A stretch of 64,000 nucleotides of DNA from an uncultured Gemmatimonadales bacterium. Its GTDB lineage: Bacteria; Gemmatimonadota; Gemmatimonadetes; Gemmatimonadales; GWC2-71-9. Made by a program: the position numbers and the translations under genes. The notes under the pieces were generated by a model. That model made no database searches. It saw nothing but the letters and a program-made list of their open reading frames with translations, and had not been told where the DNA came from. Positions within the stretch are counted from its first letter, which is position 1. Every line of letters starts with the position of its first letter. The DNA is taken from the NCBI GenBank assembly GCA_963711915.1, contig CAVQGA010000022.1, positions 124,131 through 188,130 on the forward strand, given 5' to 3'. Below are positions 39,703 through 56,047 of this stretch, piece after piece.

Positions 39703-40209
39703 ATGAAACGATCCTTCACCCTCACCATCAACGGCACGCCGCGCACGATCGAGGTCGAGCCTCGAGCGCTGCTGGTGCATGTGCTGCGCGACGAGCTCAA
39801 CCTCACGGGAACGCACATTGGGTGCGACACCAGCCAGTGCGGCGCGTGCACCGTGCTGCTCGACGGCCGGGCCGTGAAGAGCTGTACCGTGCTCGCCGTG
39901 CAGGCCGAGGGGCAGCCGGTCACCACGATCGAAGGCCTCGCCGCGGGTGAGACGCTGCACCCGCTGCAGATGGGCTTCTGGGAAAAGCACGGACTGCAGT
40001 GCGGCTTCTGCACGCCCGGGATGATCATGACGGCGGTGGACCTGCTCGCCGGCAACCCCGACCCGAGCGAAGCCGAGATCCGGCATGCCATCGAGGGCAA
40101 CTACTGCCGCTGCACCGGCTACCAGAACATCGTCTCCGCCATTCAGGCGGCGGCGTCCACCCTTCGCGCCGCCTCCGGCGCGGGCACACCCGCCCGCGCC
40201 GGCGCCTGA
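39703..40209 (+). CDS. coxS: Molybdenum hydroxylase 2Fe-2S small subunit (CoxS-like)
   Basis: [25 protein letters not shown]. Confidence 0.9.
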
Positions 40210-40220
40210 GGAGCGCGCCC

Positions 40221-42665: not shown

Positions 42666-43519
42666 TCCCGACCAGCTTCGACTACGTGCGCGCCGCTTCG
42701 CTTCGGGACGCGCTGAGCGCGCTCGCCCAGGGCGACGGCACCAAGGTGATCGCCGGCGGGCACAGCCTGTTGCCGATGATGAAGTTCCGCCTGGCGCAGC
42801 CGTCCAGGCTGCTGGACATCGGCGGCCTGACGGAGCTCCGGGGCGTCGAGGAGTACCGCAAGGGCGCGCGCATCGGCGCGACGACGACCTACCGCGAGCT
42901 GCTCGAGAGTCCGCTCCTCCGCGAGCGGTTCCCGATCATCGGGGAGTGCACCCACAACATCGGCGACGTCCAGGTCCGGAACCGCGGCACGATCGGCGGC
43001 AGCCTGGCGCACGCCGATCCGGCCTCGGACATGCCGTCGGTCATGCTCGTGCTCGACGCGACGTTCAACCTGCGCTCCAAGCGGGGCCGGCGGGCGGTCA
43101 AGGCGCGTGAGTTCTTCCACGGTCCGTTCGACACCGCGCTCGCGGAGGACGAGCTGCTGCTCGACATCGTGCTCCCGGCGTTGCCCAAGGGCGCGGGCAC
43201 GGCGTATCTGAGCCAGGAGCAGCCGGCGTCGGGCTATGCCATCGCCGGGGCCGCGGCGGTGGTGGCACGGACCCGAAAGACGGTCAGCCACGCCGTTCTA
43301 GCGCTCACCGGCGTCGGCGAGGTGTCGCGTCTCGTGGGCTCGATCGATCAGCTCGTGGGCACCAAGGCGGAGCCGGAGGTGCTGGAAAGGGTCGCGGCCG
43401 GGGCCGTCGACGGGCTCGAGGTCCAGGGCGATATCCATGCACCCGCGGAGTACCGCCGCCATCTGACGACGGTCATCGTCCGGCGGGCGCTGGCCCAGGC
43501 GCTCGAACGAGCCAAATAG
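42662..43519 (+). CDS. coxM: FAD-binding medium subunit (CoxM-like)
   Basis: IAGGHSLLPMMK, RNRGTIGGSLAHADP. Confidence 0.88.
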   Translation: MIPTSFDYVRAASLRDALSALAQGDGTKVIAGGHSLLPMMKFRLAQPSRLLDIGGLTELRGVEEYRKGARIGATTTYRELLESPLLRERFPIIGECTHNIGDVQVRNRGTIGGSLAHADPASDMPSVMLVLDATFNLRSKRGRRAVKAREFFHGPFDTALAEDELLLDIVLPALPKGAGTAYLSQEQPASGYAIAGAAAVVARTRKTVSHAVLALTGVGEVSRLVGSIDQLVGTKAEPEVLERVAAGAVDGLEVQGDIHAPAEYRRHLTTVIVRRALAQALERAK

Positions 43520-43545
43520 CCGCCCGGGGCGACGTCGCCGCGCTC

Positions 43546-44133
43546 GTGCTCGGCGCGGGCCGCGGGCGCCGCTTCGGCGGGTCCAAGCTGACGGCCCCGC
43601 TCCGTGGCCGCCCGCTCGGGGCACACGTCCTCGACACCGTGACCCGGGCCCGGGCGGCCGGCCTCGTGACCGTGGCCGCGATCGTCGTGGCAGCCGAGGA
43701 CGCGGAGCTGGTCGCGGTCGCCGCCACGGCGGGGGTGCCGTCGGTCGTGAACGAGGCCCCGGAACGCGGGCTCTCCAGCTCGCTCCGGTGCGGTCTGGCG
43801 GCGCTCGGCCCGGCGGCGGGCGCCGCCTTGATTCTGCTGGCGGACCAGCCGTTGGTCCGCCTCGACGTGATCGCGGCGCTCGTCGACGCGTGGCGTGAGG
43901 GCCGCGGCACCGCCATCCGACCGCGCTACGCCGAGGCGCCCGGCGAGCCGGGGCATCCGGTCCTTCTCGACCGCTCCGTGTGGGCCATGGCCAGGCGGCT
44001 CGAGGGCGACGCCGGACTCGGCTCCCTGCTCCACCCCGGCGACGCCGGGGTCACCCTCATCGACGTGGCCGGGCGGAACCCCGATGTGGACACGCTCGCC
44101 GATCTCGACACCCTGCAAGGACCCTCGTCATGA
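43546..44133 (+). CDS. Molybdenum cofactor cytidylyltransferase-like (MocA) nucleotidyltransferase
   Basis: GAGRGRRFGGSKL, LADQP, GHPVL, DVDT; start uncertain. Confidence 0.8.
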   Translation: MLGAGRGRRFGGSKLTAPLRGRPLGAHVLDTVTRARAAGLVTVAAIVVAAEDAELVAVAATAGVPSVVNEAPERGLSSSLRCGLAALGPAAGAALILLADQPLVRLDVIAALVDAWREGRGTAIRPRYAEAPGEPGHPVLLDRSVWAMARRLEGDAGLGSLLHPGDAGVTLIDVAGRNPDVDTLADLDTLQGPSS

Positions 44134-44579
44134 AACTCGAGTTCGCCGGCGCTCCGGTCATCACCGCTTCCCGGCGGCACGTGTGGCAGAAGCTGCTCGA
44201 CCCCGATTTCGTGGCGGCGTCGGCCCCGGGGGTGGAATCGGTCGAGGCGCTGGACCCGACACATTTCAAGGTGATTTCGGGACTGGGCGTCGGGTCCGTC
44301 AAGGTCAGGTTCAAGCTCGACGTGGAGCTGTTCGACATCGTCGACGGCGAGCGGCTCAAGATGCGCGCCCGGGGCAAGGCGCCGGGGTCGGCCGTGGATG
44401 TGGTGTCATCGCTGCGGGTGGAGGACGCCGGCGACGGGAAGACCCGACTCAACTGGTCCGCCACCAGCGAGGTGAGCGGCACGGTGGCAAGCGTCGGCGC
44501 TCGGCTGCTGGAAGGCACCGCCCGCCGGTTGACCGAGGAGTTCTGGACCGACTTCGCCCGGCGGGTCGGGACAAGCTGA
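44130..44579 (+). CDS. coxG: CoxG family SRPBCC protein
   Basis: VWQKLLDP..APGVE, VSGTVASVGARLL. Confidence 0.85.
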   Translation: MKLEFAGAPVITASRRHVWQKLLDPDFVAASAPGVESVEALDPTHFKVISGLGVGSVKVRFKLDVELFDIVDGERLKMRARGKAPGSAVDVVSSLRVEDAGDGKTRLNWSATSEVSGTVASVGARLLEGTARRLTEEFWTDFARRVGTS

Positions 44580-44776
44580 AGGCCGGTGCAGGTGAGGCGT
44601 CGCCCGCCGTCCAACCTCGCCGCCTCCTCCCCCCCTGAACCCGCTGGTGCGGTGCTCCTGGCCCCGGCGCTCAACTTGCCGGACCCGGCGCACTTGAGCC
44701 GTTTGAGTCGGGAGATGCGGTTCCGGTTTCCGGCCTGTGCCCGGGACCTGCAGGCACTCGACGGCCGAGGCCCGGT

Positions 44777-44841
44777 TTCACGGGGCCGGCGGCCGGGATT
44801 CACCATCGATTCACGCTAGGTCATTAGTGTGGCCCCAGTCG
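44777..44841 (+). promoter_or_regulatory. SARP-type promoter of orphan peptide gene
   Basis: Heptamers TTCACGG 44777, TTCACCA 44799, TTCACGC 44810 (15- and 4-nt spacers); 8 nt to -10 TAGTGT 44825-44830; CCCCAGTCG follows. Confidence 0.65.
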
Positions 44842-44870
44842 TTCGGCACCCACCCAGCCAGGAGCACACC

Positions 44871-45029
44871 ATGTCCGACCAGAAGCACGTCCGCCTGGAG
44901 CTGACCGAAGAGCAGAAGGCCCAGGTCAAGGCCGCCACGGGTAAGGATGCCCGGGCGATCGAGCTGAACGCCGAGGAGCTTGAGGAGCGTATCGCGCCGA
45001 TGCTTCCGACGCATCGCGGCGGCCACTAG
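44871..45029 (+). CDS. 52-aa EELEERIAP-motif peptide (orphan precursor-like)
   Basis: AGGAG RBS; MSDQKHVRLELTEEQKAQVKAATGKDARAIELNAEELEERIAPMLPTHRGGH; clear paralog of 52704. Confidence 0.88.
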   Translation: MSDQKHVRLELTEEQKAQVKAATGKDARAIELNAEELEERIAPMLPTHRGGH

Positions 45030-45048
45030 CATCGCTTCCGCAGCTCTT

Positions 45049-45085
45049 GCGCCCCCTCTCGCGGTCGGGCCGCGAGAGGGGGCGC
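45049..45085 (+). terminator. Strong hairpin after the orphan peptide gene
   Basis: GCGCCCCCTCTCGCGG-TCGGG-CCGCGAGAGGGGGCGC perfect 16-bp stem. Confidence 0.75.
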
Positions 45086-45372
45086 TCGATTTCGGCCCCA
45101 GCCTTCGTCCCACTTTCCAGAGAATCGTTCCTCCGCCCGCACAGCGCTTCTCCGCCGGCATCGGCCGCCAGCGACGGCACCGTCTCGGGCGAGCCGCCAA
45201 GATCGCGCGAGCGCCTTAGCCTTGATGCCCACCGCAAAGAAGGCGCGTAGCCGTCGCTCACCGCGTCCGCGTCTCGGAATCAGGACCGACCTCACCCCAG
45301 CCGGCATTGCTCGCGAACGGGTCAGGGGGTGGCGATATTCCGAGATCCTTCGCGCCAAGGATCCCTCGGTCC

Positions 45373-46269
45373 GTGACTCAGCTCCCCGATATCGATGCCG
45401 TCCAGTCCGCCTTCGCCGCGCGCGGGTACGTCGCCGACCGCGATCTCGCGACCGCGGTCTTCCTGTCGCTCGCGCTGAGTCGTCCGCTCCTGCTCGAGGG
45501 CGAGGCGGGCGTGGGCAAGACCGAAGTGGCGCGCACGCTCGCCGGCGCGCTCGGCGCCGAGCTCATCCGGCTGCAGTGCTACGAGGGACTGGACGTCAAT
45601 ACGGCCCTCTACGAGTGGGACTATCCGCGCCAGATGCTCGAGATCCGGCTGCTCGAGGCGCGCGGCGAGGCGAAGTCGGCGGCCACACGAGACATCTTCG
45701 CCGAGGAGTTCCTCATCCGGCGCCCCCTGCTTCAGGCCCTCGAGAGCCGCGCCGCCGAGGCGCCGGTGCTCCTCATCGACGAGGTCGACCGCGCGGACGA
45801 GGAGTTCGAGGCGTTCCTGCTCGAGATCCTCAGTGATTTCGCGGTGACCATCCCCGAGATCGGCACCATCCGTGCCGACCGCCCGCCGCGCGTGATCCTC
45901 ACGAGCAACCGGACGCGCGAAGTGCACGACGCGCTCAAGCGGCGGTGCCTCTACCACTGGATCGACTATCCGACCGCCGCGCGTGAGCTCGCGATCCTGC
46001 ACGCCCGCCTACCCCACGTCCCCGATGCACTCGCCCGCGAGGTCGTGGCCTTCGTGCAGCGCCTCAGGACGGCGGACCTGACCAAGTCGCCCGGCATCGC
46101 GGAGACGCTCGACTGGGCGGCCGCGCTGCTCGCGCTCGGCGCGACCCATCTCGAGGGCGAACAGATCGACCAGACCCTCGGCGTGTTGCTCAAGTATCAG
46201 GAGGATATCGGCGTGTTGCGCGGCGGCGGGGCGAGAACGATGCTGGAGGAGTCGCGAGTCGGGCGATGA
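45373..46269 (+). CDS. coxD: MoxR family AAA+ ATPase (CoxD-like)
   Basis: LEGEAGVGKT, IRLQCYEGLD, LLIDEVDRADEEFEA, HDALKRRC. Confidence 0.88.
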   Translation: MTQLPDIDAVQSAFAARGYVADRDLATAVFLSLALSRPLLLEGEAGVGKTEVARTLAGALGAELIRLQCYEGLDVNTALYEWDYPRQMLEIRLLEARGEAKSAATRDIFAEEFLIRRPLLQALESRAAEAPVLLIDEVDRADEEFEAFLLEILSDFAVTIPEIGTIRADRPPRVILTSNRTREVHDALKRRCLYHWIDYPTAARELAILHARLPHVPDALAREVVAFVQRLRTADLTKSPGIAETLDWAAALLALGATHLEGEQIDQTLGVLLKYQEDIGVLRGGGARTMLEESRVGR

Positions 46270-46280
46270 GGCGCGGGGAG

Positions 46281-46949
46281 TCAGGCCTCCACCACGAGGA
46301 TCTCGAGCCGGGGCCGGCCCTGGAAGTCCCGGTCGGTTCGGCCCAGATACACGTTCGCGAGCGAGGCCGCGCAGGCGTCGGCGCACAGTTGGTCGACGCG
46401 GTGCGTGGTGGCCAGCGCGACCACCGCCATGCCGGCCGCGCGGGCGGCCTGGATCCCCGCCGGGGCGTCCTCGATGACGAGGCAGTCTTCGGGCGCCGCC
46501 GCCAGTGCCTCCGCCGCGAGGAGGTAGGCATCCGGGCTCGGCTTTCCCCGCGCCACGTCCTCGGCGCAGACCAGTACCGGCGGCACCGGCAGGCCGGCGC
46601 GCCGGAGCCGGCTGGTGGCGGCCAGCCGGGTACCCGAGGTGGCCACCGCCCACGCGCCGGCTGGCAGCGTCGCCAGGAGGCGCGCGGAACCGGCCAGCGG
46701 GCCGATGGTCTCGGCGCCCGGCTCGTCGACCGGGTGAAAGGCCCGCACCTCCGCTTCCGCGTCGAGATCGGGCGCCGCCATGCGGATGGTCTCGAGGGCA
46801 CGACGGCCATGGCAGACGCGCAGGAACGGCTCCGGCCGGAGACCTCGGGCACTGGCCCACCGTCGCCACTGCTGTTCGACGTGGGCGGCAGAGTCGACCA
46901 GAACGCCGTCCAGATCGAACAGAACCGCGGAGCATTCGAATCGTTTCAT
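46281..46949 (-). CDS. HAD-IA sugar phosphatase (YfbT-like)
   Basis: [29 protein letters not shown]. Confidence 0.9.
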
Positions 46950-48165
46950 GTCCGCCAATAATGTCGCGCGCGGCTCGATCCCGTTAGATCCGGAACCTCC
47001 CGGGCCGCTCGAGGTCGAGACGCCCTTCGGCCCCGCGCCGGTGGATGGGAACGTGCTGCTGGCGAACGTCGCCCGGTTCGGGCGGCTGCTGCGCCAGGCG
47101 GGCCTCGACGTGGACAGCGGCCAGACCGCGACGTTCGTCCGGGCGCTCATTCTGCTGGGATTCGACCGCCGGCCCGACATCCGAGCGGCCGGCCGGACCA
47201 TCTTCGTCCGGAGGCGGGAGGACGGCCGGTTCTACGAGGCCGCGTTCGACCTCTTCTGGCGCCGCCGGGCCGGAACGAGCGAGCTGAGCAGCCAGCTGCC
47301 CCGCCTGCGGCAGGACGAGCGCAGGGAGCAGCCCGCCGACCCCGCCCGATCCGGAAGCGATACCGCCGAGGCGGAGCTGGTCGCCGCGGTGCGCCCCGGC
47401 GCTGCCAGCCTCCAGGAGGAGCTTCGGACCACCGATTTCGCCCTCCTCACCCCCGACGAGGCGCGCGATGCGGAGGCGATGCTCGAGGCGCTCCGTCCCC
47501 GGCTCCCGCTCAGAGGCGCGCGGCGCGGCCGGCCCGCGCGAAGCGGCCACCGGCCGGCGGCGCGGGCGATGCTCCGGCACGCGATGGGGACCGGTGGCGA
47601 GGCGCTCCGCTGGCGCTGGCTCCGGCGCAGCCTCCGGCCGCGGCCGATCGTGCTGGTCTGCGACATCAGCGGCAGCATGGAGCGGTACAGCCGGTTCATG
47701 CTCCGCTTCGCGCACGCGCTGCAGCGGAGCGGAGCGCCGCTGGAGGTGTTCGTGTTCGGCACCCGGCTCACCCGCATCACGCGCCAGCTCCGGACCCGGA
47801 GCCCGGATGCCGCGATCCGCCGAGTGGCCGAAAAAGTGGTCGACTGGAGCGGCGGCACCCGGATCGGAGAGAGCCTGCACGAGCTCAACCGGCGCTGGGT
47901 CCGCCGGACCGTTCGGAGCAGCGCCGTGGTGTTGCTGGTCTCCGACGGGTGGGAGCGAGGGGACCCCGCGCTCCTCGCACAAGAGATGGCCACGCTGCGC
48001 CGGTCATGCCACCGGCTGGTGTGGATCGACCCGCTCGCCGCCCGGCCCGGTTTCGAGCCGACGACGGTCGGGTTGCGGGCGGCCCTGCCATTCGTGGATG
48101 AGCTCGTGCCGGCCGCGAGCGTCGCCTCGCTCGAGGAACTGGCGGGACGATTGGTTAGGATGTGA
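46948..48165 (+). CDS. coxE: VWA-domain protein CoxE
   Basis: [38 protein letters not shown]; start uncertain (46948 or 47041). Confidence 0.85.
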
Positions 48166-48169
48166 GACT

Positions 48170-48265
48170 CGAGTCATGCTTCGCGCAACCAGGAGGACCT
48201 GCCGGGGGTCGTGGCTCCTTCGCAGAGTCTACCTTGAGCGCAGCGAACGGGCTCAGGATGACTCG
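48170..48265. repeat. REP-like intergenic palindrome (copy 3, degenerate)
   Basis: CGAGTCATG..CAGGATGACTCG with internal TGAGCGCAGCGAA. Confidence 0.6.
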
Positions 48266-48291
48266 CACACACCGATCCGGAGGCCAGACCA

Positions 48292-49328
48292 ATGCGCGAT
48301 ATCCTCTCCGACTACGACCGTCTCACCGCCGAGGGCCGCCCGTTCGGCCGCGCGGTCGTGACCAGCGTGTGGGGGTCCGCCCCCGACCCGAAGGGTCGTC
48401 GATGCTCGCCACCGCCGACGGCGTGATTGCCGGCTCGGTCTCCGGCGGGTGTGTCGAAGCGGCCACCGCCACCGAGATCGGCGAGGCCATCGGGCGCGGC
48501 ACGCCCAAACTGGTGACGTTCGGCGTCACCGACGAGCGCGCGTGGGAGGTGGGGCTCGCCTGCGGCGGGACGATCAAGGTGCTCGTGGAGCCGCGCGTCC
48601 GGCCGGAGGTCCTGCTGGCGGCGCGCGGGCCGGGCGGTGAAGTGGTGGCCACGGTGATCGACGGGCCCGGCGCGGGGGGCGTCGCGCGCGTTTTCGAGGA
48701 CGGGCGCGTGGACGGCGGGCTCGGACCGGAGCTCGAGTCCGCGACAGTGCGGGAGGCCGCCCTGCAGGCGCTCAGGCGTGAGAGCAGCGCGACCGTGGCG
48801 ATCGAGTCCGGCGCTGGGCCGGCGAGCGTCTTCCTCGAGGTGTTCCCTCGACAGCCGAGGCTCGTCATCTTCGGCGGCGTCCACATCGCGGTCGCCCTGG
48901 TGCCGCTCGCTCGGGCCCTGGGCTACCGGACGATCGTCGCCGACGGTCGTCCGGCCTTTCTGACGCGCGATCGTTTTCCGGACGCCGATGAGCTGATTCT
49001 GGGATGGCCCGAGGTGGCCTTCGAGCGGATCGGACTGGATGCGTCCTGCTACGTCTGCATCCTCTCGCACGACCCGAAATTCGACGACCCCGCGCTCCTG
49101 CTCGCCCTTCGCTCGCCCGCGCGCTACATCGGCGCGATCGGCTCGCGGAAGACGCAGGCGGCACGCCGTGACCGGCTCGCGTCATCAGGACTTAATGACG
49201 CGGAGATCGCCCGCGTGCACGGGCCGATCGGGCTGGACCTGGGCGGGCGCCAACCCGCGGAGACCGCCCTGGCCATCCTCGCCGAGATGACCGCGGTACG
49301 CTACGGTGGCGGGGTGGCGCGCCCCTAG
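48292..49328 (+). CDS. XdhC/CoxI family maturation factor, 1-nt frameshift in C-run 48380-48384
   Basis: MRDIL..VVTSVWGSAP joins RPEGSSML..GSVSGGCVE, GLACGG, SHDPKFD, YIGAIGSR, GPIGLDLG if one C is added. Confidence 0.85.
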
Positions 49329-50221
49329 TCGTCGCAGACGGGCGTACCCTCTTCCTCGGGCACGCGCTTCTGGCTCAGCGTGGCCGGCTTCTTCGGCACG
49401 GGCCCGAACCAGACGACGCAGCTCTTGCCGGGCCGGGACGCGTGGGTGGCCATGGCCGACCAGGAGGCGTCGTCCGCGTCCAGGATGGTGATGCCCACAC
49501 CGCGACGCCAGAGAAACTGCAGCGCGAACGGCTCCATCCGGCGGGAGTACACTCCCTGGTTGCCTTTGTAGCTCTCCTGGGCGCGCACCAGATTCCGCAG
49601 ATCCACCCGCATCTGCACATTCGAGGTCACTTCTTCCAACGCGCTGCTGGTATCCGGCGCCGTCGGGGCGGGTGCGGGCTCCTGCGCGACCGGAGCCTGC
49701 GCCGCCGGCGCGGGCCGGGGCGCGCGCTTGTCGTCACACACCGGCACCCCCTCCTTGCCCGTGCGCGCGTACCGGGTCGTCGCCGGCGGCTCGTGCTCCC
49801 GGCCGACGTAGACGACGCAGTCTTCGCTGGTCAGCCCGGGGCGAGTGCCTCGAACCGCCCAGCCGGCGCGCGAGAGCCACAGGAAGCGGACCTGGGTATC
49901 GCCCTGGACATGGAAACCGATCCGGGCGAGGTCCTCGGTGTAGATCCCGTTCTCGGCGTAGTAGTTCTCCTCCGCCACGACGAGCCGGCGGAGCCCCGCG
50001 CGAATCGGATCGAAGCGCGCGGCGTCCGCCGACGCGTCGGGCTTCGCCGGCTTCCTGGGTGCCAGAGCCGGCTTGGGAGGGGCCGGGGCCGGCGGCGGCG
50101 GTGGCGCCGGCGTGGCGGCCACCGACTCGGAGCGGGCCGCTGGGAGGCGAAGACCCTTGCAGTCGGCCGCCAGCAGCAGGACCAGCGAGCCGAGCAGTGG
50201 GATGTGAAATGCGCGATGCAT
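49325..50221 (-). CDS. Putative lipoprotein with two tandem pilin-head-like domains
   Basis: LVLLLAADC lipobox-like; Pro-rich linkers; repeats LRRLVVAEENYY..C..PVCDD and LRNLVRAQESYK..C..PVCDD. Confidence 0.6.
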   Translation of the reverse strand: MHRAFHIPLLGSLVLLLAADCKGLRLPAARSESVAATPAPPPPPAPAPPKPALAPRKPAKPDASADAARFDPIRAGLRRLVVAEENYYAENGIYTEDLARIGFHVQGDTQVRFLWLSRAGWAVRGTRPGLTSEDCVVYVGREHEPPATTRYARTGKEGVPVCDDKRAPRPAPAAQAPVAQEPAPAPTAPDTSSALEEVTSNVQMRVDLRNLVRAQESYKGNQGVYSRRMEPFALQFLWRRGVGITILDADDASWSAMATHASRPGKSCVVWFGPVPKKPATLSQKRVPEEEGTPVCDD

Positions 50222-50306
50222 GCGAGCCTCCGGCGCTCCGTCGACCAACTGGAATGAAATCCTATTGCGCGGCGATCGGCCGCGCCACTCAGGCGACATT
50301 CGCCCG

Positions 50307-52559
50307 CTATCGCCGCACTCGCAGATCGAGATCCTCGCCGACGATTTCCCGCGTGATCGGGAGCGAGCGGGAGGGGCGCGGCTGCTCGCTCCATCCGGCG
50401 TTCTCCAGCACGTCCGCGGTGAGATGATCCACCGCCTCCGCCTGCTCGGCGGTGCGCGCCGAGGAGGCGGCCAGATCGAGCCAGCCGAGCGCCTCGGTGT
50501 AGGCATAGCGCGCCGTCGCGCCCTCGGCAGCCAAGCGGGCGTAGCGGTACGCCAGCTCGCGCTCGCCGCCGCGGTCGGCGTGGCGGGCGAGCTCCCCCGC
50601 GACCGTCGGCGACCCGTCCTGCCCGAAGACCAGCTCCAGCGCGAGCGCCAGCGACCGGTGCACCTCGGTCCGGCGCGAGGCCGTCAGCCCATCACGCACC
50701 ATGTGCGCGATGACCGGGTGGACGCAGCGATAGGCCCCCGCCTCCTCCGCCACCAGATGCCGGTCCACGAGCGCGTCGCCGATGGCCGCGGCGTGCAGGC
50801 GGGAGATGCCGTGCACGTGGGAGAGGACCTCCGGGCGGCAGCCCCCGCCGCTCACGGCGATCGTGATCAGCACGTCCCGCAGTTCGCCTGGGAGCCGGTC
50901 CACCCGCTCGGCGATCACGTCCTGTACCGTCTGAGACACCAGGACCTCGTGGGATGCCCCCTGCTCAACCGGCGCCACGGTCCATTCCCCGGTCTGGGCC
51001 TCCATCGCCAGCAGCCCCTGGGCGAACATCGTCTTGAGCAGCTCGATGACGTAGAACGGGTTCCCGCCCGTGATCCGGAAGAGCCGGGCGGCGAACCGCC
51101 GGCCACCCGTCGGGGTGCTCACGTGCCCCATCTCGCGGACCAGTTGCCACACTTCGTCCTCGGACAGCGCGCTGAGTGAGACCACGTCGGCGTGGGCCTT
51201 GGCGCGGAGCACCCGGCAGAGCCGGGACGCGGGAGCATCACGCTCGACCTCGCCCAGCGTCAGCAGCCCCAGCCAGAGGACCGGCGAGCGCTCGAGCCGC
51301 CGGGTGATGAACCGGATCAGGTTGCAGCTGTCGTCGTCGCACCACTGGAAGTCGTCGATCACGACGGCCACCGGCCGCTCGGCCGAGATCGCCGCGAGCA
51401 CCTGCGCGCACCCCTCGAACAGCCGCCACCCCTCGCCCGGTCCCGTGTCGGCCGTGCCGGCCAGCGCGGGGAAGCGGTCGCGCAGCTCCGGAACGAGCCG
51501 GGCCACTTCCACGAGCCACTCGGCCGAGGTGCCGGCCAGCCCCGGCGCGTCGAGCGCGCTTCGGAGGACTTCGACAACCGGCTCGTACGGAAGCCCCGCC
51601 TGCCGGTCGTAGCTCCGGCCCCGGAGCACCGTTCCACCCTCGGCCACGACCCAACGCTGGAACTCGTCCGCCAGACGGGACTTCCCCACCCCCGATTCGC
51701 CCTCCACCAGGAGAATTCGGCCCTGCCCCCGGAACACACCCTTCCAGGCCGCGGCCAGCGCCTTCCACTGGGCATCGCGCCCGATGAGGCTGGCCTCGAA
51801 CGAGGGGGCATGGGCGTACCACTCGTCGGTGACCGGCCGGGACTCGGATGTCGCGTGGTCGGCCTCGACCCGCCGGACCAGCGCCTGCAGCGCCCGGCTC
51901 GGCTCGCAGCCGGTCTCGCGGGCCACCAGGCTCCGGAACTCGGCATACCGAGCAAGGGCGGCGGTGCGGTTCCCCGAGAGGTAGCGCGCCTCGACGGCGA
52001 GCTGGGCCGCTTCGTCGGACACGGGATCGCTCGCCAGCCAGCGATCCGCCAGCTCGACCGCATCGCGCCAGCGCCACTGCCCCATCGCCTCCCGTGCCAG
52101 GCGAGCGAGCGCCTGCTGGTACTGACCCAGCAGGCTCGTTCTGGTGGCCGCGACCCATTCGTCGAACTGCGGCGCCCGGCGGATCGAGAATCCCTCGAGG
52201 AACCGGGGCACGTCGAAGGCGACGGCGCGAGTGGGATCGCTCTCGAGCGCCGAACGGAACTCGACGACGTCGGACCCGAGGGGTGGCGCGAGCTCGATCA
52301 GCGACCGGTCCGCGTGGATCGTCTCGCCCAGCACCTCTCGGAGGTGCTTGAGCGCCTGCCGGAGCGACGCCCGCGCCTCGGCCTCGGGCGACTCGCCCCA
52401 GAGCAGCCCGGCCAGTGCTTCCCGGCTGTGCAGCCGCCGCTCGAGCGTCAGGAAGGCTAAGAGCGCCATGGGCTTGGCCCCAAGGGCGGGCACAACCGGC
52501 GCGCCCCCGGGCGTGGTCAGGAGCGGCGTTCCGAACAGGTGCAGCGTGTGTGTGGACAC
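50307..52559 (-). CDS. SARP-like transcriptional activator: wHTH plus BTAD plus AAA ATPase
   Basis: LHLFGTP..ALLAFL..SREALAGLLW..ARASLRQAL; FLEGF..FDEWV; TGCEPS; GESGVGKS, VIDDFQW, TGGNPFY. Confidence 0.9.
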   Translation of the reverse strand: MSTHTLHLFGTPLLTTPGGAPVVPALGAKPMALLAFLTLERRLHSREALAGLLWGESPEAEARASLRQALKHLREVLGETIHADRSLIELAPPLGSDVVEFRSALESDPTRAVAFDVPRFLEGFSIRRAPQFDEWVAATRTSLLGQYQQALARLAREAMGQWRWRDAVELADRWLASDPVSDEAAQLAVEARYLSGNRTAALARYAEFRSLVARETGCEPSRALQALVRRVEADHATSESRPVTDEWYAHAPSFEASLIGRDAQWKALAAAWKGVFRGQGRILLVEGESGVGKSRLADEFQRWVVAEGGTVLRGRSYDRQAGLPYEPVVEVLRSALDAPGLAGTSAEWLVEVARLVPELRDRFPALAGTADTGPGEGWRLFEGCAQVLAAISAERPVAVVIDDFQWCDDDSCNLIRFITRRLERSPVLWLGLLTLGEVERDAPASRLCRVLRAKAHADVVSLSALSEDEVWQLVREMGHVSTPTGGRRFAARLFRITGGNPFYVIELLKTMFAQGLLAMEAQTGEWTVAPVEQGASHEVLVSQTVQDVIAERVDRLPGELRDVLITIAVSGGGCRPEVLSHVHGISRLHAAAIGDALVDRHLVAEEAGAYRCVHPVIAHMVRDGLTASRRTEVHRSLALALELVFGQDGSPTVAGELARHADRGGERELAYRYARLAAEGATARYAYTEALGWLDLAASSARTAEQAEAVDHLTADVLENAGWSEQPRPSRSLPITREIVGEDLDLRVRR

Positions 52560-52599
52560 GGACGATCCCGAGGATGTACACCGAAGAACGTACCGGCGA

Positions 52600-52664
52600 T
52601 TTACGGAAGGGCAATAGGCAATCACGGTCTTTTCACGGAGACCTCATAGGTTGTCCCCCAGTCG
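52600..52664 (+). promoter_or_regulatory. SARP-type promoter of the peptide/export operon
   Basis: Heptamers TTTACGG 52600, ATCACGG 52621, TTCACGG 52632 (14- and 4-nt spacers); 8 nt to -10 TAGGTT 52647-52652; CCCCAGTCG follows. Confidence 0.65.
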
Positions 52665-52703
52665 GTGACGGTGATGGACCGCAGGCCACCCCAGGAGAGC
52701 CCC

Positions 52704-52874
52704 ATGTCAAACGCCAAAGATCAGATCCGGATCGAGCTGACCCCCGAACAGAAGGCCAGCATTCGCAGCACCACGGGCAAGGACGCCGAGGCGGTGGAGC
52801 TCTCGGTGGAGGAGCTCGAGGCCCGCATCGCTCCGACCAAGGTGCTCCACCCGATCCCGAAGAACCTGGGCTAA
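52704..52874 (+). CDS. 56-aa EELEARIAP-motif peptide (precursor-like)
   Basis: AGGAG RBS; MSNAKDQIRIELTPEQKASIRSTTGKDAEAVELSVEELEARIAPTKVLHPIPKNLG. Confidence 0.88.
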   Translation: MSNAKDQIRIELTPEQKASIRSTTGKDAEAVELSVEELEARIAPTKVLHPIPKNLG

Positions 52875-52916
52875 TCCGATTTCCCCATCTCGACCTTCAC
52901 TGAAACGGGAGCTATC

Positions 52917-53045
52917 ATGAGCAAGCACGACGAGCAGACCCGGACCCCCGAACAGCAGCCGAAGAAGCCCGTTCCGTCCAAGGACGTCGAGCTGGGCGTC
53001 GAAGAGCTCGAAGAGAAAATCGCTCCGATGAAGAAGTTCATCTAA
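52917..53045 (+). CDS. 42-aa EELEEKIAP-motif peptide (precursor-like; absent from ORF track)
   Basis: GGGAG RBS; MSKHDEQTRTPEQQPKKPVPSKDVELGVEELEEKIAPMKKFI. Confidence 0.85.
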   Translation: MSKHDEQTRTPEQQPKKPVPSKDVELGVEELEEKIAPMKKFI

Positions 53046-53060
53046 GCGACTCCCTCTTCG

Positions 53061-53122
53061 CGGTGCCCGCAGCGGGGCACCGGTCCGGGCTCCGGCTCTC
53101 CGTGTGGGAGGGCCGGAGCCCG
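53061..53122 (+). terminator. Tandem stem-loops between peptide genes and export genes
   Basis: CGGTGCCC..GGGCACCG and CGGGCTCCGGCTCTCC-GTGTG-GGAGGGCCGGAGCCCG; no U-tract. Confidence 0.6.
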
Positions 53123-53150
53123 TTGTCCACTCAGTCCATCATCCTGACAA

Positions 53151-55079
53151 ATGAGCGCTCCAGCGACGTCCACCGACGAGCTGCGTGAGGAAGTCGAGCG
53201 GCTGCGCCTGCTCCAGTCCATCAGCTTGGAGCTGGGCGCGTCGCTCGACTTCGACGAGCTGCTGCCCAAGGTCTTCCATCGGGTGCTCACCGCGCTGGGC
53301 GCGGAGGGCGGCTCGATCTGGATCACCGAGGGCGACGTGCTGCGCTGCCGGATCGCCCTGGGCGGACGGGGCGACCGGCTGGTCGGCGCCGAGGTTCCGG
53401 TGGGAACCGGGTTCGTGGGCGACGTCGCCCAGCATCAGAAGACCACCATGGTTACGCGCGCGGTCGAAGACCCGCGCTTCGACCCGGAGCTCGACCGCTC
53501 CAGCCAGACGATCGCGCTCAACGTGATGGCCACGGCGATGGTGACCGGCGGCGTCACGGTCGGCGCGATCCAGGTGACCAACAAGACCACCGGCAACGGT
53601 GTCTTCGACGACCGCGACCGCGACCTGCTCGAGGGCGTGGCCGCCTTCGCCGCCATCGCGCTCCGGAATGCCCAGCTGCACGCCGCCGAGAAGCGCGCCG
53701 GCGATCTGGCCCTCCTGCTCGACATCAGCCGCGAGATCACCGCGACGCTCGATCTCGACCGGGTGCTGCAGTCGGTCGTGAACCTGGCCTCGCGCGCGCT
53801 CCCATTCGACCGGGCCGCGGTGGCGCTCTACGAGAAAGGGCGCTGCGACATCCGGGCGGTGGCGGGCGAGGAGACGGTGGATCCCAAGGATCCCAAGCTG
53901 CAGGACCTGGTGGCGCGGGCCGAGTGGGCGGCGGGCCGGGGCGAGCCGCTCTATCTGGTGGAGCGCGTGGCGCCGGGCTCCGATGCCGAGCGAATGTTCG
54001 TGACCATTTTCGGCCAGGACCTCCAGACCGACACGGTCGAAAGCGGTCTCTATCTCCCGCTCAAGGACGAGGAGGGGGTGCTGGGCGTCCTGGTGTTCGA
54101 GTCGGCCACCGCGGACTTCGCCACGCCGACCCAGCGCGAGGTGGCCGCGATCCTGGCCAATCAGACCGCCGTGGCGCTCCGGAACGCGCAGCTCTACCAC
54201 CAGGTGCCGATGGTGGACGCGCTCGGGGCCCTGGCCGCGAAGCAGCAGGCGCTCCGTGCCATCCCCCGGCGGCGGCTCCGGATCTACGCCGCCATCGTCG
54301 CGCTGGCGGTCGCCGAGCTGGTCCTGGTGAGGTGGCCGCTCCGGGTCGCCGGGGAGAACGCCGTGTTTCGCGCGGGCGGCTACAGTCCGGTGCGGGCGAT
54401 CGTCGCCGGCGTGGTCGAGCGGATTCCGGTGCTCGAGGGCGGCGCCGTCGCGCGCGGAGCGCCGGTGGCGTACCTCCGCGCCACGTCGCTCCGGGCCGAC
54501 CGGGAGGCGACCGCCGCCGAGGCCGCCTCCGCCGACCGCCTGGCGTCGCTGGCCGCGAGCCGGGGGGACCCGTCCGAGGAACGGCTGCACCGGATCCGTG
54601 CCGACGCGCTCCGGCGCGAGACCGCGCTGCTCGACGAGGAGCTGGAGCTCACGACCCTCCGGGCGCCGGTGGGCGGCATCGTGCTGACGCCCCACGTCCA
54701 GGACCGGGTCGGCAGCTCGCTCGAGGAGGGCGACCTGCTGCTCACGGTCGGACGGATGGATTCGCTGGAGCTCGAGTTCGGCGTGGCGCAACGAGACATC
54801 GGCCGCGTGCGCCCGGGCCAGGAGATCCGGCTCCGGGTGGATGCCGCGCCGCAGCGCACGTTCACCGGGCGCGTGCGCAGCGTGGCCCCGCTTCCGGCCG
54901 ACAGCGGAAGCGATGTGATGTATCCGGTCCGCGCGGTCGTCGCCAACCCCGACGGCCTGCTCAAGCCGAGCATGGCGGCCTATGTCCGCGTGCTCACCGA
55001 TCCCGCCTCCGCGGCCACCCGGCTCCTCCGCGGGCCGGCCCGCTGGGCCCGTCTCCTCTGGTGGAGGATCTGGTCGTGA
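53151..55079 (+). CDS. GAF-GAF-TM-HlyD-type membrane fusion protein
   Basis: Two GAF domains (GTGFVGDV..DPRF; AAIALRNAQL, AVALRNAQL), TM, lipoyl-hairpin LRAPVGGIV, LLKPSM. Confidence 0.85.
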   Translation: MSAPATSTDELREEVERLRLLQSISLELGASLDFDELLPKVFHRVLTALGAEGGSIWITEGDVLRCRIALGGRGDRLVGAEVPVGTGFVGDVAQHQKTTMVTRAVEDPRFDPELDRSSQTIALNVMATAMVTGGVTVGAIQVTNKTTGNGVFDDRDRDLLEGVAAFAAIALRNAQLHAAEKRAGDLALLLDISREITATLDLDRVLQSVVNLASRALPFDRAAVALYEKGRCDIRAVAGEETVDPKDPKLQDLVARAEWAAGRGEPLYLVERVAPGSDAERMFVTIFGQDLQTDTVESGLYLPLKDEEGVLGVLVFESATADFATPTQREVAAILANQTAVALRNAQLYHQVPMVDALGALAAKQQALRAIPRRRLRIYAAIVALAVAELVLVRWPLRVAGENAVFRAGGYSPVRAIVAGVVERIPVLEGGAVARGAPVAYLRATSLRADREATAAEAASADRLASLAASRGDPSEERLHRIRADALRRETALLDEELELTTLRAPVGGIVLTPHVQDRVGSSLEEGDLLLTVGRMDSLELEFGVAQRDIGRVRPGQEIRLRVDAAPQRTFTGRVRSVAPLPADSGSDVMYPVRAVVANPDGLLKPSMAAYVRVLTDPASAATRLLRGPARWARLLWWRIWS

Positions 55080-56047
55080 CCCGCCCCGCCATCGCGCTGG
55101 CACTCCTGCTCGCCGCCTGCGGCGGCGACGCGCCGCGCCCGATCGAGACCGCCGCGACGCTGGCCTCCACCCCGGCCGGCGCGATCGCGACGGCCGAGAG
55201 CGTCACGGTGGACCGCCCGCTCTCGCTGCCCTCGCAGCTCTACGTGGAGCACGACGCGGCGGTCCTGGCCCGCTCCGGCGGCGTGGTCGAGGCCATCCTC
55301 GCCGACATCGGCACGCCGGTGGCGGCGGGCCAGGCGCTCGCGCGACTCGAAAGCACCGACCAGGAGATCGCGCTGGCACAGGCGCGGGAGCAAGCGTCCA
55401 ACGCCAAGCAGCGGGTCGAGCGCCAGCGCGCGCTCACGACCGCGGGCGTGGTGACGCGCGCCGATTCGGAGCAGGTGGAGTTCGAGAACCGGGCGGCGGA
55501 GCTCGCGCTCAGGAAGGCCCAGCGGGACTACGACCTCACCCGTATCGTGGCCCCGTTCGCCGGAGTGGTGACCGCGCGGATGGCGCGGGTGCAGCGGATG
55601 GTGCGGGACGGCGATTCGCTGTTCCGCGTCACCGCGCTGGCCCCGGTGCTGGCCACCGTGCGGGTGCCGGAATCGGCCGCGACGGGACTTCGGGTCGGGG
55701 CCAAGGCGCGGGTGCTGGGCGCGGGCGGCCGGAGCGCGGAGGGGCGCGTCATCCGCGCGTCGCCCGTGCTCGACGCGGCCAGCGGCACCCGCGAGGTGGT
55801 CGTCCAGCTCGCCCCCGGCGCCGGCGTCACCCCCGGCTCGAGCGTGACCGTGCAGCTCGGCGCCGAGCGGCACAGTGTGGTCGCGATCCCGCGGGCGGCG
55901 GTCGCCAAGGATGGCTACGCGCTCGTCTGGGACGACAACCGGACTACGCTCCGCCCCGTCACCCTCGGCGCCGACCTCGACGGCGGCCGGGTGGAGGTCG
56001 TGGCCGGGATCGCCGCCGGCGAAAAGGTCGTGCGGGCCGCCCCGTGA
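55076..56047 (+). CDS. RND-type periplasmic adaptor (MFP) lipoprotein
   Basis: LLLAAC lipobox, IVAPFAGVV, SPVLDAASGT, VEVVAGIAAGEKVV; GTGA overlap. Confidence 0.88.
   Translation: MTRPAIALALLLAACGGDAPRPIETAATLASTPAGAIATAESVTVDRPLSLPSQLYVEHDAAVLARSGGVVEAILADIGTPVAAGQALARLESTDQEIALAQAREQASNAKQRVERQRALTTAGVVTRADSEQVEFENRAAELALRKAQRDYDLTRIVAPFAGVVTARMARVQRMVRDGDSLFRVTALAPVLATVRVPESAATGLRVGAKARVLGAGGRSAEGRVIRASPVLDAASGTREVVVQLAPGAGVTPGSSVTVQLGAERHSVVAIPRAAVAKDGYALVWDDNRTTLRPVTLGADLDGGRVEVVAGIAAGEKVVRAAP

Follow-up and report, generated by a model that had tools for sequence, protein, structure and literature searches.

Conserved TTCACG direct repeats upstream of peptide genes in Gemmatimonadales form a likely operator of a SARP-type regulator

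We analysed a 64,000-nucleotide stretch (the window) of a soil Gemmatimonadales genome, which contains three small peptide genes on the plus strand. The gene p1 (44871–45029, +) encodes a peptide of 52 amino acids with a conserved leader (...ELNAEELEERIAP) and the tail MLPTHRGGH. It is preceded by AGGAG (44860–44864), has a GC3 of 0.87, and its orthologues in genomes G001, G007 and G012 are 84–93% identical. A 17-bp hairpin 3' of p1 (45049–45085, +; −44.9 kcal/mol, z −4.68, none of 200 shuffles as stable) is a likely terminator. The gene p2 (52704–52874, +; 56 amino acids, GC3 0.88) is a paralogue of p1, with 57% identity over 49 amino acids. Conservation among the peptides covers an N-terminal part ending in EELEERIAP, and the short tails after it are hypervariable. 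Relatives of p2 fall into 367 protein clusters, all of which are unnamed, 'hypothetical' or automatically labelled DUF1192. The third gene, p3 (52917–53045, +; 42 amino acids), starts 42 nucleotides 3' of p2 and is probably co-transcribed with it; an RNA-library contig (X17 record 20) spans 52692–52935.

Two strong hairpins, a likely terminator or attenuator (53062–53125, +; −62.1 kcal/mol, z −5.40), lie between p3 and a set of export genes. These encode a GAF-GAF protein with one membrane helix and an HlyD-type adaptor (53151–55079, +; orthologues 60–84% identical in relatives), a putative membrane-fusion lipoprotein named from the appearance of its sequence (HlyD/RND adaptor-like; 55076–56047, +), whose GTG start overlaps the preceding stop (GTGA), and an M50-type intramembrane metalloprotease fused to HlyD (56044–58092, +). 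The last of these is contained in a longer open reading frame (54982–58092), whose first 354 residues are read in a different frame from the true genes; the real start is the GTG at 56044. Two Ser/Thr protein kinase genes follow. One encodes a kinase domain only (58411–59241, +; 276 amino acids) and occurs in the same order in G004, G020, G007 and G024, and the other (59319–61892, +; 857 amino acids) has one membrane helix and a 520-residue outer domain, with full-length orthologues adjoining the cluster in G004 and G020.

A regulator gene (50307–52559, −) encodes 750 amino acids comprising a winged-helix DNA-binding domain, a BTAD domain (41 bits) and an AAA_16/NOD ATPase domain (AAA_16, 100.9 bits). 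The Trans_reg_C match scores 20.8 bits, under the Pfam cut-off of 26.2, and no Pfam match to TPR was found in the protein. It is a medium-sized SARP. Among solved chains, the nearest are the SARP domain of AfsR (8hvr_I, E 4.7e-6) and EmbR (2fez, E 7.5e-6). The lineage had been described as not looking actinobacterial, and it is not: the 42 closest regulator loci carry titles of Gemmatimonadales, Gemmatimonadaceae or Gemmatimonadota MAGs. In an alignment of 37 N-terminal regions, from the regulator of this genome and 36 orthologues, few stretches are as well conserved as the recognition-helix region ARASLRQALKHLR. AfsR contacts bases through T88 and R92 (PMC10936776), and these positions align to Q and H in a phmmer alignment numbered by hand. 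Orthologues are 54–78% identical, and in 18 genomes they are divergent from, and on the same contig as, the peptide and GAF-HlyD genes; divergence from the peptide operon is seen wherever contigs allow. A regulator orthologue and the peptides were found together in 21 of 41 genomes, and the remaining 20 yielded neither, although these counts overstate the independent support because related genomes are kin.

Three TTCACG-like heptamers had been reported in the initial annotation upstream of both p1 and p2, the last of them 8 nucleotides before a TAnnnT −10 element that is followed by a shared sequence, and all of this can be read directly in the DNA. In the promoter of p1 (P1; ATG at 44871), the plus-strand heptamers TTCACGG (44777–44783), TTCACCA (44799–44805) and TTCACGC (44810–44816) precede the −10 hexamer TAGTGT (44825–44830). 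In the promoter of p2 (P2; ATG at 52704), a degenerate TTTACGG (52600–52606), ATCACGG (52621–52627) and TTCACGG (52632–52638), also on the plus strand, precede TAGGTT (52647–52652). Read as hexamers, the repeats are TTCACG (44777–44782), TTCACC (44799–44804) and TTCACG (44810–44815) in P1, with periods of 22 and 11, and TTTACG (52600–52605), ATCACG (52621–52626) and TTCACG (52632–52637) in P2, with periods of 21 and 11. The −10 element is 9 nucleotides from the proximal hexamer, and thus 8 from the heptamer, in both. CCCCAGTCG follows at 44833–44841 (+) and 52656–52664 (+), one base farther from the −10 in P2, and contains the predicted transcription starts, A 44837 and A 52660. With a start at 44837, the distal heptamer of P1 would lie at about −60 to −54 and the TTCACC hexamer at −38 to −33, which is the −35 position. 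The distal heptamer also has a counterpart 22 nucleotides upstream in the p1 orthologues of G001, G007, G012 and L021, and the distal position of P2 is occupied by TTCCCGG or TTACGG in the nearest relatives and by TTCACGG in more distant ones. The repeat layout shared by P1 and P2 is real and far beyond chance.

The starts had been expected just downstream of 44830 and 52652, and contigs assembled from RNA libraries begin at the predicted nucleotides. One (X18 record 29) covers 52660–52867 without mismatches and has its 5' end at 52660, and another, from a 90%-identical relative (X18 record 23), has its 5' end at 44837; these coincidences are a hint only, since assembled contigs cannot prove a start. 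Two further contigs run through P2 (X15 record 6, 52538–52717; X16 record 14, 52570–52882), which may reflect extra transcription across P2, DNA carry-over or another start.

Conservation of the motif upstream of orthologous peptides had been named as one point on which its interpretation could fail, and the motif is conserved. We collected 86 unique 140-nucleotide regions upstream of orthologous and paralogous peptide genes of the family in Gemmatimonadales MAGs. TTCACG occurs 161 times in these regions, compared with 4.9 expected (33-fold), and is present in 73 of them. The TCAC cores are spaced by 11 nucleotides in 70 cases and by 21–23 in 32, and TCAC-N7-TCAC is found in 70/86 regions versus 92/6110 background windows. 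Ten of the 16 regions that do not have it are upstream of p3-type second genes; p3 itself has no heptamers of its own upstream. The same operator is found before peptide genes unlinked to the cluster in G022, G038, G011 and G007. Among 67 unique promoters, columns that the alignment did not force read G directly behind the first core in 65, and T in front of the second core and G behind it in 67 each. Within the −10 hexamer, position 2 is A in 64 promoters and position 6 is T in 66, a further column being T in 59, and the 9-nucleotide spacer carries almost no information. A distal TCAC 21–23 nucleotides upstream was found in only 27 of 69 unique promoters and CAG[TC] within 10 nucleotides after the −10 in 29, so the robust unit consists of the two proximal heptamers and the −10.

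We scanned the whole 4.49-Mb genome with a weight matrix built from the 67 unique orthologous promoters, to which P1 and P2 themselves did not contribute. Only six sites exceeded 12 bits. P2 (36.5 bits) and P1 (26.3 bits) are the two best, followed by sites of 23.0, 22.3, 15.5 and 13.2 bits, and the maxima in three Markov-simulated genomes were 12.8, 14.4 and 12.1 bits. Four sites score at least 22 bits, and the genes downstream of them encode the two peptides, a DUF4440 protein and a TonB-type receptor. The initial annotation had anticipated a regulon, and the scan yields a small one led by P1 and P2. The 23.0-bit site is 85 nucleotides 5' of a secreted DUF4440/SnoaL gene on the same contig (G000:C22:67010), whose orthologues in G012 and G010 also carry the motif. 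A pattern search of 41 genomes gave 56 matches at the correct spacing, versus one for a reversed control and seven (none in this genome) with the spacing off by one. By coordinate comparison, 38 of the 56 are at most 200 nucleotides upstream of a family peptide gene.

In small SARPs the repeat consensus is TCGAG-like. That string was not found in the text of a review of these proteins (PMC10972967). According to published rules, which P1 and P2 match as had been claimed, SARP repeats are 11 or 22 bp apart with the 3' repeat 8 bp from the −10 (PMC10936776), and the heptamers have 4–15-nucleotide spacers and overlap the −35, with three repeats at some sites (PMC10972967). Small SARPs such as ActII-ORF4, DnrI and RedD likewise use heptameric direct repeats with 4-nucleotide (or 15-nucleotide) spacers over the −35 (PMC10972967), with the 3' repeat 8 bp from the −10 (PMC10936776). 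However, the repeat here is TTCACG, the regulator has an ATPase domain, and the predicted targets encode peptides and secretion proteins rather than a polyketide or similar pathway.

In geometry and core sequence the repeats match the published afsS promoter, the target of AfsR in Streptomyces coelicolor. Both regulators have a SARP domain and a NOD ATPase, and in both cases a target is a small ORF adjoining the regulator gene. The afsS promoter carries two 11-bp direct repeats at about −40 to −19; its −10 is weak, and a poor −35 (TTCAGC, −38 to −33) falls within the upstream repeat (PMC10936776). The spacer there is 20 bp (PMC11301090). In P1 the corresponding elements are TTCACC (−38 to −33) and TAGTGT, likewise with a 20-bp spacer. 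The published AfsR motifs, YGTTYAKSD and SRWTCANSD (PMC10832544), also have a TTCA-like core, and GATTCACGG fits the second. AfsR is phosphorylated by AfsK (PMC6988585), and Ser/Thr kinases are conserved in the Gemmatimonadales cluster. In contrast, the phylum is Gemmatimonadota rather than Actinomycetota, the 750-residue regulator has no detectable TPR domain, and the similarity to AfsR is weak, with the E-value noted above extending over the SARP domain. Other differences from the afsS system are that the regulator gene and the peptide genes point away from each other, that the targets comprise several promoters, one of them distant, and that the peptides resemble precursors made of a leader and a tail, with protease and adaptor genes linked to them.

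We consider it probable, at roughly 0.78, that the SARP-type regulator encoded in the cluster (50307–52559, −) has its operator in the TTCACG repeats and that activation is AfsR-like. The interpretation given in the initial annotation is supported, every checkable part of it having held. Counting against the assignment are the low Trans_reg_C score, the Q and H aligned to T88 and R92, the other BTAD proteins of the genome and the RNA contigs that run through P2. Conserved divergent linkage and co-occurrence point to binding by the cluster regulator rather than by another BTAD protein, and the promoter geometry suggests activation of P1 and P2; the regulator is likely to be the activator of both. 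By analogy with AfsR at afsS, two protomers would occupy the pair of proximal 11-bp repeats as neighbours, between about −40 and −19 and overlapping the −35 position, and would recruit RNA polymerase to a promoter that has a usable −10 and lacks a properly spaced −35. Some promoters have a third repeat two helical turns farther upstream. The predicted targets are p1, a monocistronic gene that has a terminator of its own; p2-p3, an operon from which attenuated read-through would reach the GAF-HlyD, lipoprotein adaptor and M50-HlyD genes; and the distant DUF4440 gene. Likely inputs would be the NOD ATPase of the regulator and both conserved kinases of the cluster. We found no described case of a SARP operator in Gemmatimonadota in the literature; the operator type is known from Streptomyces SARP/AfsR promoters.

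A different winged-helix protein, either a SARP-like paralogue or an OmpR/PhoB-type response regulator, could instead bind what is a real operator. The genome has 18 BTAD-domain matches above the Pfam cut-off, and one paralogue (C7:236790) has a similar recognition helix, sharing the SLRQAL motif with the regulator, so cross-binding is possible. Streptomyces PHO boxes are also built of 11-nucleotide direct repeat units with the core GTTCACC (TTCACG here), PhoP binds two units as a winged-helix dimer, as is predicted here, and PhoP and AfsR sites overlap at afsS (PMC6988585). However, PhoP controls more than 100 genes (PMC6988585), whereas the motif has only about four sites here, before genes unlike those of a global regulon, and is tied to one gene cluster. 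The pattern had a single match in 14 genomes of other genera that have no regulator orthologue (G025–G037, G039), BTAD paralogues occur in genomes without the peptides (for example, G005 and G016), and the cluster regulator is the only conserved DNA-binding protein found in the cluster. We regard another binder as unlikely.

Somewhat less probable still is that the regulator acts mainly as a repressor or autoregulator that occludes the −35 region, as the overlap of the repeats with that position and the RNA contigs of two runs crossing P2 might suggest. A putative regulator promoter (52587–52614, −), proposed from TTGCCC (52614–52609) and TACGTT (52592–52587) separated by 16 nucleotides, has the distal heptamer of P2 in its spacer. 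Its GGCAA-like and AACCTA-like complements are both present in 27 of 69 unique promoters, chiefly those adjoining a regulator gene, and are absent from p1-type promoters. Against repression, P1 and P2 have no −35-like hexamer 16–18 bp from the −10 and a simple sigma-70 scan called no promoter at either; their spacing of 20 bp is that of the activator-dependent afsS promoter, and the same layout is found before unlinked peptide genes without a regulator gene in divergent orientation. With the regulator as an activator, the position of the P2 distal repeat may couple peptide activation to autoregulation. That the likeness of P1 and P2 is a mere remnant of gene duplication, devoid of operator function, is very improbable. 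The paralogy of p1 and p2 does imply that their upstream regions share ancestry, but outside the heptamers and the −10 these regions are not conserved among P1, P2 and more than 60 relatives, while the spacing is preserved to the nucleotide. Nor can common ancestry of the peptide genes account for the motif before the non-homologous DUF4440 gene in three genomes. In our judgement the alignment columns, the DUF4440 orthologues and the TTCACG enrichment already contradict this reading.

The peptides and export genes recall RiPP systems in which precursors are processed by M50-like leader proteases (daptide MpaP-type, YydH/LiaK). No modifying enzyme and no ABC transporter were seen in the operon. 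The precursors of such systems likewise have a conserved N-terminal part and a hypervariable tail, and the operon includes an intramembrane protease with an HExxH motif that matches NF041824 (daptide intramembrane metalloprotease; 200.3 bits, cut-off 300) and NF058609, in both cases under the family cut-off. Unlike in those systems, the protease here is fused to an HlyD adaptor.

Two promoters on the forward strand, P1 and P2, each precede a small-peptide gene and share one layout. P1, upstream of p1 (44871-45029, + strand, 52 aa), carries TTCACG at 44777, TTCACC at 44799 and TTCACG at 44810, followed by the -10 element TAGTGT (44825-44830) and CCCCAGTCG (44833-44841). In P2, upstream of p2 (52704-52874, + strand, 56 aa), the repeats TTTACG (52600), ATCACG (52621) and TTCACG (52632) are followed by TAGGTT (52647-52652) and again by CCCCAGTCG (52656-52664). 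Both read directly as the initial annotation had described them, and their shared geometry is confirmed: successive repeats are 22 and 11 bp apart at P1 and 21 and 11 bp apart at P2, the 3' repeat is 8 bp before the -10 element, and the -35 position is overlapped. A sigma-70 scan called no promoter at P1 or P2, as activator-dependent promoters would lead one to expect. Folding of the predicted 5' leaders shows no unusual structure (z -0.05 and +1.81), and an Rfam search found no match in 44000-54000.

This is the arrangement described for targets of Streptomyces SARP activators. According to extracts of PMC10936776, their direct repeats lie at intervals of 11 or 22 bp, with 8 bp between the 3' repeat and the -10 element, and the promoter of afsS, a target of the SARP AfsR, has a weak -10 element together with a poor -35 hexamer (TTCAGC, -38 to -33) within the upstream 11-bp repeat. 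The afsS spacer is 20 bp in an extract of PMC11301090. If transcription of P1 starts at 44837, TTCACC falls at -38 to -33, TTCACG at -27 to -22 and, with a gap of 20 bp, TAGTGT at -12 to -7, which is the layout of afsS. SARP heptamers are more generally separated by 4-15-nt spacers and sometimes number three (extract of PMC10972967). Of the two AfsR motifs given in an extract of PMC10832544, YGTTYAKSD and SRWTCANSD, the latter is matched by GATTCACGG, the common form in the relatives.

To collect related promoters, we searched 40 related genomes with the regulator encoded beside p2, the GAF-HlyD protein encoded downstream and p1, searched public contigs with the regulator, and took the upstream regions of all family peptide genes found. 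The 42 closest public regulator loci are all titled as Gemmatimonadales, Gemmatimonadaceae or Gemmatimonadota MAGs, in keeping with the earlier impression that the lineage is not actinobacterial. In 86 unique 140-nt upstream regions, compared without anchoring, TTCACG occurs 161 times against 4.9 expected and is present in 73, so the motif is conserved upstream of orthologous peptides, a point on which the initial annotation had staked its proposal. Successive TCAC cores are 11 nt apart in 70 cases and 21-23 nt apart in 32. TCAC-N7-TCAC is found in 70 of the 86 regions, whereas background windows drawn from these loci contain it in 92 of 6110 cases, and ten of the 16 regions lacking it belong to p3-type second genes directly behind another peptide gene.

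Anchoring on the two proximal cores left 79 usable regions, which were reduced to 67 unique promoters by removing the two promoters of the present genome, two mis-anchored rows and duplicates. Their consensus is (A/T)TTCACG-N4-TTTCACG-N9-nAnnTT. The columns unforced by the anchor are near-invariant (G 65, T 67 and G 67 of 67; in the -10 element A 64, T 59 and T 66), and the spacer columns hold almost no information. The three-repeat 22/11 layout is retained at p1 orthologues of three related genomes (G001, G007 and G012) and of the MAG behind locus L021; unlinked family members in G022, G038, G011 and G007 have the two-repeat form. The distal repeat is less constant, with TCAC 21-23 nt upstream in 27 of 69 unique promoters, and the likeness to CCCCAGTCG shrinks to a CAG[TC] that 29 of the 69 have close to where transcription is expected to begin. 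At one locus, L081 (G022:C401:5750-5965), a lone peptide gene is preceded by a tandem pair of full modules, each of repeats plus -10 element, at a distance of 111 nt from one another.

The scan of the genome for the repeat/-10 pattern, as the initial annotation had suggested, used a matrix built from the relatives' promoters with the genome's own sequences left out. It returned six matches above 12 bits, led by P2 (36.5 bits) and P1 (26.3 bits) and followed by G000:C22:67010 (23.0 bits), G000:C15:17173 (22.3 bits) and two further sites (15.5 and 13.2 bits); the best scores in three simulated genomes were 12.1-14.4. The site at C22:67010 lies 85 nt before a gene for a 162-aa secreted DUF4440/SnoaL-like protein, which is not homologous to the peptides, and is followed by CAGTCG as at P1 and P2. 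Orthologues of this gene in G012 and G010 also carry the motif, and it is a credible third target. The site at C15:17173 precedes a TonB-type receptor gene.

Across 41 genomes, the pattern TCAC-N6-TTCACG-N10-A-N3-T has 56 matches versus one for the reversed control. An off-register control with the spacer one base longer has seven matches, none of them in the present genome, and the 14 genomes of other genera without a regulator orthologue contain one pattern match in total. By coordinates, 38 of the 56 matches are followed by a family peptide gene at no more than 200 nt. Two of the other 18 precede DUF4440 orthologues, four belong to a different element, and the remainder stand before assorted secreted-protein, lipoprotein or kinase genes or before no callable gene.

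That different element is conserved, non-coding and precedes a conserved gene in four relatives (L101, L102, L110 and L111) and at G000:C22:14361-14749. It consists of CCGCAGGGGACGTTCGTCCC, about 20 nt, TCACGGAAACTTCACG, about 10 nt and CGTAGTG, and its match to the heptamer pattern is accidental. The element resembles an ECF-sigma promoter (GGAAAC ... CGT), and Rfam gave no match at the four ECF-like loci. Separately, the related genome G015, which has neither a regulator orthologue nor the peptides, contains two near-identical sites (L112 C35 and L113 C36) that read TCACGAACAATTCACG and then CCATTCT; no callable gene lies behind either.

The candidate activator is encoded at 50307-52559 on the minus strand, divergent from p2 across a 144-bp gap, and has 750 aa from a GTG start. 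Its nearest solved relatives by phmmer are the SARP domain of AfsR (8hvr_I, E 4.7e-6, residues 30-236) and EmbR (2fez, E 7.5e-6, residues 12-231). The winged helix is matched weakly (Trans_reg_C, residues 48-111 of the long ORF, E 4e-4, 20.8 bits against a cut-off of 26.2), the BTAD domain (PF03704) reaches 41 bits where the cut-off is 22.1, and the NOD/NB-ARC-type ATPase is matched by AAA_16 at 100.9 bits with a P-loop (GESGVGKS) and the motif VVIDDFQW. The central ATPase is shared with AfsR, a SARP-NOD-TPR protein; however, no TPR family matches the regulator in Pfam (E <= 0.01), and at 750 aa it departs from the AfsR type of about 1000 residues with C-terminal TPRs. Among the small, medium and large SARPs of an extract of PMC10972967, it fits the medium class as outlined there. 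The recognition-helix region is strongly conserved over 37 aligned N-terminal regions (this regulator and 36 orthologues), and it differs in three of four paralogues of this genome and is similar in the fourth, C7:236790. The 4.5-Mb genome has 18 BTAD matches above the Pfam cut-off, one of which sits just upstream of the window (C22:123424-123819).

The regulator is followed closely, in the same orientation, by a gene (49325-50221, minus strand) that has a signal-peptide-like start, an internal duplication and no Pfam match. By tblastn, 18 of 42 public loci have a homologue that is downstream of, and co-directional with, the regulator, starting within about 0.5 kb of the regulator end in 16 and about 2.5 kb away in two.

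In 18 genomes a regulator orthologue shares a contig with the peptide/GAF-HlyD genes and is divergent from them; in others contig ends intervene. The 21 genomes, of 41, that yielded the orthologue are also those that yielded the peptides, which we take as consistent support rather than a statistical test because the genomes are kin. (The unpublished genome G003 is one row in each relative and pattern tally, and no claim hangs on it alone.) From linkage, co-occurrence and geometry we infer that the regulator binds the TTCACG repeats and activates P1 and P2, an interpretation already put forward in the initial annotation and favored by the comparative evidence. A competing reading of the repeats is as PHO boxes, which are GTTCACC in 11-nt units, and PhoP and AfsR sites overlap at afsS (extract of PMC6988585). 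Against a PhoP regulon, just four sites score at least 22 bits and the genes behind them are not phosphate genes. The comparisons as a whole support a SARP/AfsR-type operator in Gemmatimonadota that would control an undescribed small-peptide family together with protease-adaptor genes.

Parts of the locus are present in four metatranscriptome runs (X15-X18), in assembled contigs. In X18, a 208-nt contig with 0 mismatches begins at 52660, and a relative with 90% identity contributes a 192-nt contig whose first base aligns with 44837. Each is the A of CCAGTCG, taken beforehand as the likely start, 7-8 nt past the -10 element. However, low-depth contigs in X15 and X16, beginning at 52538 and 52570, cross P2 and argue against a single clean start there. 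The contig starts agree with the predicted starts as a hint, since contigs cannot prove starts. An X17 contig crosses from p2 into p3, taking in the last part of the one and the first part of the other. No RNA contig covers the regulator gene or 53126-53400, which is not evidence of silence; matches at 45.5-45.8 kb were set aside, as they have many mismatches and come from coxD-like genes of other organisms.

In the mechanism we propose, the regulator would occupy the pair of proximal repeats as a dimer, its subunits side by side, and recruit polymerase to a promoter without a usable -35 element, while the third repeat, two turns upstream, would add affinity. At P2 this third repeat also overlaps a putative promoter from which the regulator itself would be transcribed, TTGCCC-16-TACGTT (minus strand, 52614-52587). 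Hairpins after p1 and p3 may keep the peptide transcripts abundant relative to those of the export genes, and the regulator may receive its inputs through the kinases and the ATPase domain.

The third paralogue, p3 (52917-53045, + strand, 42 aa), begins 42 nt behind p2 and lacks repeats of its own. The three peptides have in common ...VEL..EELEE[RK]IAP followed by short dissimilar tails, and are the sole family members found in the 4.49-Mb genome. Their codon-position GC (GC3 0.84-0.88, GC2 0.28-0.40) is that of real genes. Folding places a 17-bp hairpin 3' of p1 and two strong hairpins 3' of p3; a terminator scan found no T-rich terminator. Pfam and NCBIfam held no family for p1 or p2, and p3 had just one chance-level match (12.8 bits). 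In relatives (L001-L062), the tails past the invariant RIAP have 5-15 residues, are rich in K, R and P, and are unlike even among close relatives (TKVLHPIPKNLG, SKIFPPKNG and MTIKPK are examples). At least 367 protein clusters fall in this family, none with a real name.

The sigma-70 scan flagged TCGACC-17-TATCAT (52890-52918), a reading we rejected: the second hexamer overlaps the start codon of p3, and it is in this stretch that p3-type genes have their conserved ribosome-binding region. The gap before these genes (52875-52916) is nearly identical in DNA across relatives, TCGACCTTCTC(C/T)GAAACGAGCGCTATCATG, and its conservation exceeds what a ribosome-binding site alone requires.

Downstream of p3 on the + strand lie genes for a GAF-GAF-HlyD protein (53151-55079), a lipoprotein adaptor (55076-56047) and an M50-type protease fused to HlyD (56044-58092), the latter two each joined to the preceding stop by a GTGA overlap. 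A single 1036-aa ORF at 54982-58092 was rejected, as codon-position GC shows the lipoprotein adaptor in another frame and M50-HlyD beginning at GTG 56044. Assignment of the peptides and protease to a daptide-like RiPP system is not supported, with NF041824 at 200.3 bits against a cut-off of 300 and no modifying enzymes among the operon genes examined. Two Ser/Thr kinase genes follow at 58411 and 59319, and the cluster order including the kinases is the same in G004, G020, G007, G024 and probably G038, as co-location.

The presence of two Ser/Thr kinases beside a SARP-type regulator recalls AfsK-AfsR-AfsS, in which AfsK phosphorylates AfsR (extract of PMC6988585). In a bolder reading, the cluster would be a self-amplifying peptide signaling circuit of a kind undescribed before and the Gemmatimonadota counterpart of that system. 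The M50-HlyD protease would cut the leader-plus-tail peptides after the invariant RIAP for export by three HlyD-type adaptors; the membrane Ser/Thr kinase would sense the short hypervariable cationic tails through its 520-aa outer domain; that kinase would phosphorylate the SARP-NOD regulator; and the regulator would switch on P1, P2 and the DUF4440 gene via the TTCACG operator. Taken jointly, these four steps are improbable. Were they correct, the hypervariable tails would be strain-specific signals, and a true kinase-regulator link would mean that AfsK/AfsR-type wiring has a greater age or mobility than is apparent from its history in Streptomyces.

Knowledge of SARP activators and the repeats they bind comes almost solely from actinomycetes, and the titles and abstract openings listed for SARP or BTAD work in Gemmatimonadota or other non-actinobacteria describe no such operator. 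Here afsS-like promoter logic, with a -35-overlapping repeat and a 20-bp spacer, is conserved in a new phylum, in dozens of uncultured soil Gemmatimonadales. It would equip Gemmatimonadota, a phylum with almost no studied transcription factors, with an operator ready for use and a minimal regulon. The operator also points to a widespread unnamed peptide family with unusual protease-adaptor fusions and two kinases.

The p1 gene lies 5.3 kb past the 3' end of the regulator amid CO-dehydrogenase/xanthine-dehydrogenase-type genes. This set (39999-49328 in the window) comprises a molybdopterin subunit, an FAD subunit, MobA-like, MoxR/CoxD-like AAA, VWA CoxE and XdhC proteins, and in some 20 of the 42 public loci the regulator has xdhC and coxE as neighbors.
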